Below, one piece after another: positions 6,001 to 9,000 of a stretch of 20,633 nucleotides of DNA (positions within the stretch are counted from its first letter, which is position 1; the number at the start of each line of letters is the position of its first letter). Source of the DNA: a virus (lineage: Duplodnaviria; Heunggongvirae; Uroviricota; Caudoviricetes); IMG/VR virus record IMGVR_UViG_2529293039_000014; one strand, given 5' to 3'. A program made the position numbers.

Positions 6001-9000
6001 AGCACTACCAGCGGATGTTCCGTAGGCAATGCCAGTAGAGATTTTGTCCATTGATTTCATAGCAACGCCTCCGCCAGTAACGGATTGCGTAGTTCTTATA
6101 TTGGGAAGGGGAAAAAAGAAGGCCGCAGCGTAACTATCACTAATAAATTCAGGACAGCCAGTGGCTACGGCTCAGTTTGGGTTGTGGCGGCCGGAATCGA
6201 ACCGGCTTCCATCGGTGCGCTGCCGATTGCAGTACGCGCGGCGGTCAGCTATATGACTAGTATTTTCACTATCGCCTATCTGCTAGCTCGCCATTGAGCT
6301 TCACCACAACGATAAGAGCACTGCGCGGCACCTTTCACCAATTCCGCGAGGTCTGCGGGTTCAATGCTCTTACCTGTTGTGCAGAAAAAAAACCACACGG
6401 CAGCGAGTTTAAGCTGTGTGGCGAAGTTACCTCTCTTCACCAAGTATTCGGTAATAAAATAACTTGTGGTGTTCTCGTTTTTATGCCGATAAAATAAACG
6501 GTCCACTTTCAAATGGAGCGATTCATGATTTTTCTCAGAACTGAAAACGGCATCGAGAAACTTGAAAACTGGGAGGAAATTATATCCAGACCAAACTTTG
6601 TCACCACTATAGACAAAGGAGTTCAACAACTTGAGGAGATAATTGGTTACTACAAATTTAAAGAAGAAATCCACTGTGGTCTAACTGGTTGCAACCAACC
6701 ACATCAAATGGGTTATATTGTAAAAACATCTAGTGGCATTGAAACCAACATCGGAAATAAATGTGGTAAAAACGAATTTGGTGTGGAATTTGGTGAAAAC
6801 GTTCTTAGTTTCAATAAATTTATGCAACTCGAAACCAATCGGGAAATTATTAGCACCGCAAAAAGTAAATGTGAAGCGTGGCAAAAAAATATTGAAACGA
6901 TACGAAATATCAAACCCACAATAGATTATCTATCTTCTACCATCGAAAATAGTAAAAATTCCAATTACTCCGGAAGACTTGGTGCTACAGAAATTCGTTT
7001 TTTGACCAAGAACCAGACAGGCCTTGTAACCCTTTCTGAAGTGGAAACTGATAAGAATACCAAAACAATTCTGTTCGCAATGAATGAACACATGCGCGAG
7101 TCTGGAGAGGCAATAAGTGAATTCTACATAGGAAAAGTATCATTTAGTCATGTTCTTTTACCAGAAAACAATCTTCGTGATTTTTTTGTTGCGCTCAAAG
7201 AAGATCTAAAAAAAATTCAGTGTATTGATCTACAAACAGCCCCAAGCCCAGAAATTTCTAATGTTGCCAAAATTGCCAGTTCAATCGAAGAACGAATCAA
7301 GCGATTAAAAAAACTGAAACATGAAGCCAGTAAATTCCTAACTAAAAAAAATCTGCGTCCCATCGCAAACAAAATAAAATACTCATCGACAGCGGATGAA
7401 CTTGAATTCCATAATTTCGAACGCTTTTTAAAAGGGCTGAAATGATAAAAGCCCCGAAAGGGGCTTCTATCAAAATCATTTACGCATTATTCCGCATGCT
7501 TAAAAGAATACATGACAGATTCGGACAAAATCAAGTGCAATGTCGCAAAAACCCTAAGCTTAGTTCACATCATCACCAAAACTTGTCACATTCTGAAAAG
7601 CAATATCGGCCTTACGCTCTTCCTGGTGGCAAATGTCAACCAGAGAATCAAGAAACGGCTTCCAATTACGCGTCCATGTCCTGACATGTAGCTCGGGTAT
7701 CCGCTTCAGTACAACTTTATATACTGTGGTAGACGGTACCGTGGAAAATCCATTTCCGCTGCAACGTTCGCAGATTTTAAACACTGGCACACCACGCTCG
7801 CTTGTGGCTTTGCGGTCCAGTACCTCTCCCTTTCCACCACAACGACACCTGGCACTTATCACTCCCTTCCCTTTACATACATCGCAAACGACTGGTACAA
7901 CTTCCGTTACCTCTGTCCATTTCTCCCAGTCTGACGGTCGAACAGCACGGGAGCGACTGGCCCAATATGGTGCTTTACCCCATGGGTATGAAACCTTACG
8001 AATGACCTGCTTACGGGGTGTTAGTCCGGTACCACTGCAACTATGGCATGTTACGCTGGTGTCCGCCGATCGGGAATACTCAGCAAAAGCAAACTGCGCC
8101 AGTACCAGCATACACCAGCCAAATTCACCACCAGCTGCTTTACGCACATTCTTCGGTGCAATTTCCATCGCGTGACGCGCCAGCGCTTGGACTGCCATCT
8201 GCTCATCAGTCTTGCTGATACCGGCCTTCCCGAAGAAGGCCGCCAAGCCAAACCGTTCACGATTGCTGGTGGTACCAATAGCCGCCATAACATCGGTGCC
8301 TGTAAGACGTTCCGGAGAGGTTCCTTTCACATCGTCGCCGATATACATTCCCTGAGGACTGAAGTATTTTAGCGATGCCTCAAGCTTCATTATTCACACT
8401 CCCCAACCAGATTAAGAATAACCGCCGCGCCATTGTCTTTCATATATTCGCCCTTTCCGCTTGCCAAAAACCAACGACACACCTCCACTGCTTCAGCCCG
8501 TGTCACCGGTTTGATGGTCATCAGCAATTTTTCAAGGTAGCGCTCGCGGTCATATACCGATTCGTGATGCTCAGAGTAACCATACTCATCGCCCTGTTCT
8601 TTAGACGCAGTGTGGCGAACACTGTAGAGCCAGTCCCAGTAAACAAACTCACGAACTACGTCTGACAATGTATGAGGCTCTGGCAGTACATCACGATAGC
8701 CATCAACATATGCACGACGCTGATCATCAATTTCATTCATACGGATGCCATCAATTCTGCCCGCTGTCTTCTCGGCTGCAGTCCAGCCCCAGAGATGATC
8801 GTCGATAAATTTCTGGGAAGACTTGATCACTCGCTCGGCTTCCACATCTTCGAGTGCTGCTTCATAGCTACCAAACGTAGCCCTGACTGATGTTGCTTTT
8901 TTGATATTCTCCCGGGCGATCCTGATTGCCTGTGCCGGGTTATCCATGCCGATGGTACCGAAAGCAATCTGGAAAGGATCACCACCATTCGCCAGCAGAT

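Follow-up and report, generated by a model that had tools for sequence, protein, structure and literature searches.

A covarying hairpin RNA behind the late terminator of a lambdoid prophage, a probable relative of the lambda small RNA LPR2

IMGVR_UViG_2529293039_000014, a Caudoviricetes record of IMG/VR analysed here as a single window of 20,633 nt (positions are counted from its first letter), carries a hairpin at 6311-6374 on the minus strand, between the Q antiterminator gene and the lysis cassette of a lambdoid prophage. The stem of this hairpin is conserved and selected at the RNA level, on the strand of the late transcript. The hairpin is probably, with a confidence that we would put near 0.6, the representative in this prophage of the family of the lambda small RNA LPR2, derived from the untranslated leader of the late operon and made of a processed scaffold and an interior cargo. 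The original prediction, drawn from the sequence alone, had seen here an 8-bp inverted repeat closing a region of about 45 nt, beside a terminator formed by a hairpin and U8. Inspection of the sequence places both repeat and terminator where they had been located and the inverted repeat is real, but its size was misjudged: the stem counts 13 bp, two of them G·U, reaches about 20 bp with its flanks and encloses 38 nt. The suggestion of a structured, small regulatory RNA in the Q-to-S interval has held up, since the stem covaries and is common, together with its position, to lambda LPR2.

Read along the minus strand from 6421 downwards, the terminator hairpin and its U8 are followed by CUG, CACAAC, a single A, the 5' arm GGUAAGAGCAUUG, the 38-nt interior, the 3' arm CAGUGCUCUUAUC and GUUGUGGUG (6302-6310). 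The hairpin thus lies about 10 nt past the U-tract of the terminator and 5' of the holin gene. Its 13-bp helix is extended by the pairing of CACAAC with GUUGUG across a bulged A (6375), and GUUGUG has two alternative pairings, as it can pair either with 6376-6381 or with 6181-6189. Alone, the hairpin folds at -27.9 kcal/mol (z-score -3.5, equalled by none of 200 shuffled sequences); with its flanks it folds at -36.0 kcal/mol (z-score -3.6, equalled by one of 200). As plain DNA and taken by itself, the inverted repeat is at chance level: it is perfect over just 8-9 bp and does not figure among the inverted repeats of 12 nt or more, 16 in all, that the window contains. The hairpin is judged real because of its conservation and covariation, not because of the DNA repeat itself.

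Folding and covariation had been named as the way to check the structure, and both bear it out, with the stable fold given above and a stem that covaries across 35 distinct scaffold variants, in which the interiors were replaced by GAAA so that the stem alone was scored. Over its 20 pairs, 94.3% of the cells are paired and seven pairs have changed on both sides; no shuffle out of 500 attains any of the five measures used, and sliding the partner by 1-3 columns lowers the pairing to 31-62%. The flank variants CAUAAC, CGCAAC, UGCAAC and CACGAC (columns 4-9 with 42-47) are transitions that keep pairing through G·U, and the same changes on the opposite strand are A·C mismatches. When a loose pattern matching both strands is used, all 13 positions are paired on the late strand (11 Watson-Crick and 2 G·U), against 11 of 13 on the opposite one. 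In divergent copies entire helices have been exchanged with complementarity kept, as in the swap AACUAUC/GAUAGUU of locus L026 and in the replacements GGUAAUGGCACUG/CAGUGCCAUUACC and AGGAGAGAGUAUUU/AAGUACUCUCUUC, and two loci (L024 and L065) have an extra U opposite the bulged A, with which it pairs.

In lambda, an RNA of about 63 nt named LPR2 was detected by Northern blot and by co-immunoprecipitation with Hfq; it lies beside the 6S RNA in the late operon, from which it is a distinct species, and is expressed mainly in the lytic cycle, and its only chimera partners in RNA interaction by ligation and sequencing (RIL-seq) were PreS/LPR1 and fliC (bioRxiv 10.1101/2024.10.31.621285). The same paper leaves the function unassigned and contains no analysis of the structure or conservation of LPR2; its coordinates were not found in the supplementary tables (bioRxiv 10.1101/2024.10.31.621285). 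The conserved stem occurs in lambda at 44794-44856, between tR' and S, where arms and interior (13 + 37 + 13) add up to 63 nt, and the Northern probe P844 (AGCACTGGCTAACCAGGCTCGCCGACTCTTCACGA) is the exact reverse complement of the lambda interior and the start of the 3' arm. Because probe position and band size match, we infer that LPR2 is this lambda hairpin, cut at the foot of the 13-bp stem. Expression in the lytic cycle fits a Q-modified polymerase that reads through the upstream terminator.

The window copy shares with lambda its place directly past the late terminator and 5' of the lysis genes, the 5' arm (13 of 13 positions), most of the 3' arm (11 of 13), identical CACAAC/GUUGUG flanks and a predicted length of 64 nt against 63 nt. 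The 37-38-nt interior, which makes up about 60% of the RNA and is the part covered by the probe, is in contrast unrelated: lambda has the type here called variant B and the window has variant A. The interior of the window copy therefore lacks the complementarity to PreS found in lambda, and no PreS homologue was found in the window. Between the lambda interior and PreS, on the other hand, there is a complementarity of about 33 nt at -33.8 kcal/mol (shuffles -22.4 ± 3.3, with 2 of 500 as good), and the interior resembles a diverged antisense copy of PreS/LPR1 (lambda 44794-44856 against 33951-34011), which fits the sponge idea of the authors who described LPR2. Sponging of PreS as a general function of the family was considered and rejected, as PreS and variant A occur side by side in phage HK629 and, over the whole of lambda, PreS does not give the interior its best match by energy.

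The region 6396-6117 is about 97% identical in coliphage HK75, whose annotation includes Q, pR' and Tr'; the match starts within Tr'. The region also turned up in 665 of the 5,426 complete E. coli genomes. Salmonella phages of the Skatevirus type have parts of the region in common, and the lambda match is 32 nt long; the 5' arm is identical in lambda, HK75, HK629 and the Skatevirus phages. What is kept is the stem, (A)GGTAAGAGCATTG...CAGTGCTCTT(A/T)(T/C)C with its CACAAC/GTTGTG flanks, and the interior is replaced wholesale: variant A occurs in the window, HK75, HK629 and phage SeSz-2, and variant B, GTCGATAATCGTGAAGAGTCGGCG(A/T)GCCTGGTTAGC, in lambda and one Skatevirus phage. Interiors range from 29 to 130 nt, and their predicted shapes comprise one to three hairpins, some of them T-arm-like; many fold no better than shuffles. 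Among 147 units of a hairpin and its downstream neighbour, a sample biased by the search patterns used, 30 interior types and 34 downstream types are freely combined (variant A with 7 downstream types, variant B with 8), and the sequence of variant A hardly differs across 66 units, which come from E. coli lambdoid and Salmonella Skatevirus phages.

Scanning IMG/VR, and one genome for each species, brought further copies. The true hosts all belong to the Enterobacterales (Escherichia, Salmonella, Klebsiella, Kluyvera, Citrobacter, Enterobacter, Pantoea, Rouxiella and Superficieibacter). Matches outside this order (within L126-L160, from Pseudomonas, Shewanella, Bacillus-group, Bradyrhizobium, Streptomyces-group and other assemblies) are low-coverage contigs of about 48.5 kb, or fragments, with the exact hairpin of lambda, and are most likely lambda DNA present as contamination or spike-in. 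The element was not found in the E. coli K-12 prophages DLP12 and Qin, which makes the small-RNA catalogues of that strain uninformative.

Directly at the 3' foot of the hairpin begins a second cassette, a 130-nt tRNA-like RNA; this RNA and the adjoining of two cassettes had both escaped the original prediction. It is closed by a 9-bp acceptor-like stem, GUUGUGGUG/CGCCACAAC, and comprises a D arm (AGCUC/GAGCU), an inserted domain of about 55 nt, a hairpin resembling an anticodon arm (AUCGG-CAGCGCA-CCGAU), the linker GGAA and a canonical T arm (GCCGG-UUCGAUU-CCGGC, 6190-6206), with CCA directly past the closing stem. For 27 distinct homologues RNAalifold gives a cloverleaf-like consensus of 31 pairs, 12 of them with compensatory changes; many homologues end in ...CACCACACC-ACCA, and the RNA is present in more than 120 IMG/VR contigs. 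With tRNA, the tRNA-like domain of tmRNA and YrlA it shares the T arm, whose loop is of the GTTCGAWTCC type, the D arm, an acceptor-like stem that closes the ends and the terminal CCA. It differs from a tRNA in the length of the acceptor stem (9 bp instead of 7), in the insertion between the D and anticodon-like arms and in the loop CAGCGCA, which lacks U33 and a purine at position 37. The termini of YrlA lie in its Ro-binding stem and not in the acceptor stem. ARAGORN finds no gene in it, and the Rfam models of tRNA (RF00005), tmRNA and YrlA stay below their gathering scores, with a weak tmRNA match of 20 bits to the T arm. One Salmonella phage record annotates 58 nt of this RNA as 'tRNA-Ser'.

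In other phages the same 9-bp stem encloses quite different contents, and bona fide tRNAs may stand close by: in L018 the hairpin ends 3 nt 5' of a tRNA-Arg(TCT), in L026 a tRNA-Arg and a tRNA-Met come after an alternating series of hairpin and frame units, and in L031 such units precede tRNA-Ser, tRNA-Arg and tRNA-Met. Given these neighbours, the hairpin occupies the 5'-leader position of tRNA-like genes. The commonest class of second cassette has the form GUUGUGGUGAAUGCGCAGGCUGAUGCGC...[variable]...AAGCCGGAGAUCAGCACCGGCCACCACAAC (L004, L012, L026, L031, L063, L066, L071, L098, L107, L129, L143 and others). In this class the first and the last hairpin have complementary loops, GCUGAU and AUCAGC, and in L107 both loops have changed together (GUCGA/UCGAC), which suggests a kissing-loop 'elbow' in a tRNA-shaped frame with a hypervariable middle domain. 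In the second cassettes of L076, L098 and L024 the variable domain contains GGTGAGGTAATGGCTCACCATGGCGACGA, which over 29 nt shares 86% identity with E. coli 16S rRNA at about 254-282 and whose helix is kept by a compensatory swap; this sequence is a possible mimic of an rRNA helix.

As a member of the LPR2 family, the hairpin would be transcribed solely when Q-modified polymerase passes the terminator, and host endonucleases would then free an RNA of about 64 nt. The stem would provide processing and stability, and the interior, conserved within each type, would confer specificity in trans by base pairing. Several points weigh against this account. The hairpin lacks the 3' U-tail that is typical of Hfq-dependent small RNAs, and lambda LPR2 is equated with the hairpin from where the probe lies and how large the band is, not from mapped ends. 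The RNA of about 63 nt and its binding to Hfq were seen in lambda, which carries variant B. Within variant A, the nested CCGCG/CGCGG segments of the original prediction are present, but the fold of this interior is ambiguous; it is no better than that of shuffles (z-score 0.08) and shows no covariation. When a pairing partner of variant A was sought in the window and in HK629, the best z-scores were an unconvincing -3.3 and -4.8, not beyond the distribution's tail, and no partner was common to the two. The occurrence of PreS beside variant A in HK629 means that the pairing of the interior with PreS is not a conserved relationship, and in the scan of the whole of lambda PreS was not the top energy match. 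Finally, the cutters can be named only by conjecture: RNase III is a candidate for the long stem of about 20 bp, and RNase P, if it cleaves the adjoining tRNA-like RNA at its 5' end, might be another and would set the 3' end of the hairpin.

The main competitor, rather unlikely in our estimation, is a hairpin that acts purely in cis for processing or insulation, its stem being a signal for cleavage and folding, parting the tRNA-like RNA or tRNAs from the late mRNA or stabilising a new 5' end, with the small RNA as a by-product and the interior as filler. A highly conserved stem around unrelated interiors, many of which fold no better than shuffles, is what such a role would look like; the hairpin moreover always stands 5' of a tRNA or tRNA-like RNA or forms arrays with such RNAs, and LPR2 has just two RIL-seq partners. 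Filler, however, would drift, and each interior type is itself conserved, variant A across its 66 units. LPR2 also builds up as a distinct RNA and is recovered with Hfq, and its interior is complementary over about 33 nt to one of its RIL-seq partners, PreS; both findings speak against a role purely in cis.

An element acting at the level of DNA, either a set of recombination joints or the site of an invertase or homing enzyme that exchanges modules, with no function as RNA, is improbable. The exchange of modules as such is plain. The Q gene, an antisense open reading frame and the 5' part of the terminator region are common to the window and the Stx phage phi467, in which stxAB follows instead of the hairpin, and E. 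coli N61 has an upstream module like that of the window, then variant A and the downstream cassette of lambda; these comparisons place one mosaic joint, that to the Q module, at the end of the U-tract and more joints at the stems. Mosaic joints coincide with stems, all cassette combinations are seen, and in L120 a gene for a putative HNH endonuclease sits exactly at the junction of the two cassettes. This last insert measures about 630 bp (about 7395-8025 in reverse-complement coordinates; TTTCC-TGTT / ... / ATTGTGGTGAA), and includes an open reading frame that looks like an HNH homing endonuclease. A DNA site is nevertheless unlikely because the G·U pattern is strand-specific, with A·C on the other strand, and a hairpin-sized RNA was detected in lambda. 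Compensatory changes also maintain the pairing in divergent copies, and no interior was seen in inverted orientation among the copies, the strand being ambiguous in L049 and L093, whose arms are perfectly palindromic.

That the hairpin belongs to the Q-utilisation apparatus or to a 6S-like RNA, as the original prediction had also allowed for, the latter being a short 6S- or StxS-type RNA made from pR' and ended at tR', has in its favour the Q-to-S interval and the adjacent terminator but is very improbable indeed: it lies past the U-tract, so a transcript terminated there cannot contain it, and qut overlaps pR' and the early transcribed region, in which Q is loaded onto a paused polymerase; in addition, lambda 6S and LPR2 are separate, Rfam isrJ matches in related prophages end about 17 nt 5' of the hairpin, and the hairpin of Skatevirus phages follows an ordinary promoter (TTGACA-N17-TAGATT), with no Q gene nearby. 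The lambda 6S RNA, StxS (PMC7547250) and IsrJ (RF01393) occupy the same neighbourhood and are by-products of the control of antitermination by Q, but they start at pR' and stop at the terminator, whereas the hairpin needs read-through and matches them neither in sequence nor in Rfam. The isrJ matches in question are at 2710-2786 in L114 and 4281-4357 in L148, where IsrJ appears to be the short pR'-tR' terminated RNA of those prophages; in L017 a further match (1706-1782) lies about 600 nt 5' of the hairpin.

The scaffold is otherwise without a counterpart in the resources consulted. The Rfam scan that had been proposed returned no match in the window at gathering score (Rfam 15) and, at E ≤ 10, nothing relevant over 6311-6374; the hairpin element had no Rfam match in 15 related loci either, and ARAGORN called nothing on it. 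Full-text searches for the conserved sequences found no paper, and neither Rfam nor the searchable literature holds anything on the shared scaffold, its covariation, the cassette interiors, the coupling to tRNA-like RNAs and tRNA arrays, or variant A. The Pas small RNAs, STnc100, AgvB and AsxR (bioRxiv 10.64898/2026.05.13.724894), Hfq small RNAs that bear terminators and have Rfam models, were tried and gave no match. A likeness to RNase P RNA (rnpB 9-mers GGUAAGAGC and GGUGAAAGG, E about 0.06 each) was put down to chance, because in the hairpin the positions concerned covary as an ordinary helix and the blocks lack collinearity. Variant A was likewise dismissed as a mimic of a host RNA, the sole match being an 11-nt antisense stretch that is not significant after multiple queries. 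This stretch (6337-6347, CCGCAGACCUC in the minus-strand RNA) is perfectly antisense to the variable loop and T stem of E. coli tRNA-Ala(UGC), with E 0.03 in a database of 5.5 kb, and the similarity runs weakly into the 5' arm of the hairpin.

Two further groups of phage RNAs bear comparison. Among the RNase III processing hairpins of phage transcripts are T7 R1.1 and the site in the lambda N leader. With these the window hairpin has in common about two turns of near-perfect double-stranded RNA with a bulge, a place in a polycistronic transcript and, judging by lambda, a discrete product; the conservation of its stem sequence, however, goes far beyond what RNase III is known to need, and its apical part is a variable structured domain. 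Species 1 and 2 of T4 (rnaC and rnaD) are small stable RNAs in the tRNA gene cluster, co-transcribed and co-processed with the phage tRNAs. By description they resemble the hairpin as small stable phage RNAs alongside tRNAs, but T4 is unrelated and a build of scaffold and cassette is not known for rnaC and rnaD.

A wider proposal, which we advance tentatively and hold to be possible at best, is that the hairpin and its tRNA-like neighbour represent an undescribed modular class of phage RNAs. In it the stem of about 20 bp and the tRNA-shaped frame would serve as processing scaffolds, each with exchangeable cargo, shuffled among temperate and Skatevirus-type phages of the Enterobacterales and expressed late or in tRNA arrays. 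The cargos might act as decoys, sponges or guides against RNAs of the host or of rival phages and against RNA-binding proteins, for instance as anti-defence decoys; those seen so far include tRNA-like arms, a probable copy of one helix of 16S rRNA and a sequence antisense to another small RNA of phages. The late leader of lambda has been studied heavily, yet LPR2 was first noticed there in 2024, as an uncharacterised band. It would now be one case of a widespread scaffold, present in about 12% of the complete genomes of E. coli and in phages of Salmonella, Klebsiella, Enterobacter, Citrobacter, Kluyvera and Pantoea, and linked both to a tRNA-like RNA that had not been annotated and to the tRNA arrays of phages, now discussed as tools of counter-defence. 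The constant stem with its swappable interiors offers a direct experimental handle and, if the cargos do prove to be decoys or sponges, the scaffold would amount to a compact natural RNA display system.

The features of the locus are collected in Table 1. The terminator upstream of the hairpin, a predicted one, is a G+C-rich hairpin of -12.9 kcal/mol, with a 9-pair stem and one mismatch, followed by a U-run; it was missed by a simple scanner on account of its 11-nt loop and its mismatch, and in HK75 the terminator at the equivalent place is annotated as Tr'. No promoter-like site was found in 5800-6800.

Table 1. Features of the window around the LPR2-type hairpin.
Feature	Positions	Strand	Remarks
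Q antiterminator (PF03589)	7560-8390	minus	upstream of the lysis cassette
Intrinsic terminator (predicted)	6385-6421	minus	hairpin CCACACAGC...GCCGUGUGG (6393-6421) and U8 (6385-6392)
5' flank CACAAC	6376-6381	minus	pairs with GUUGUG (6305-6310), lengthens the stem
5' arm of hairpin (M1)	6362-6374	minus	GGUAAGAGCAUUG; covaries with the 3' arm in divergent copies
Apical domain, variant A, exchangeable	6324-6361	minus	AACCCGCAGACCUCGCGGAAUUGGUGAAAGGUGCCGCG, 38 nt
3' arm of hairpin	6311-6323	minus	CAGUGCUCUUAUC
3' flank GUUGUG	6305-6310	minus	doubles as nt 1-6 of the acceptor-like stem in the next cassette
Second cassette (M2), 130-nt tRNA-like RNA	6181-6310	minus	from fold and RNAalifold
P21-type holin	5845-6060	minus	lysis cassette of lambdoid prophage
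Lysozyme	5348-5845	minus	lysis cassette
Rz	4884-5363	minus	lysis cassette

In phi467 (L276) the slot taken in the window by the hairpin and the tRNA-like RNA holds stxA/stxB (2994-4229) and then tRNA-Thr and tRNA-Gly (4743-4896), and the late leader past the terminator is evidently a general site for cargo. The antisense open reading frame, between Q and the terminator, spans 6513-7445 on the plus strand (with 7442-7684, also plus), encodes 310 amino acids, belongs to phrog_7003 and has no Pfam match; it is possibly a moron or a defence gene, and the module formed by Q, this reading frame and the terminator is also found in phi467 and in E. coli N61. Within the antisense reading frame, about 190 nt past the stop codon of Q, there is a second terminator-like site on the minus strand (7343-7370, GTTTGCGATGGGACGCAGAT and T7), which may be the original tR' of the Q module; if so, late transcription would pass two terminators before it reaches the hairpin. 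In HK629 a gene annotated as an HNH endonuclease lies between pR' and the terminator.

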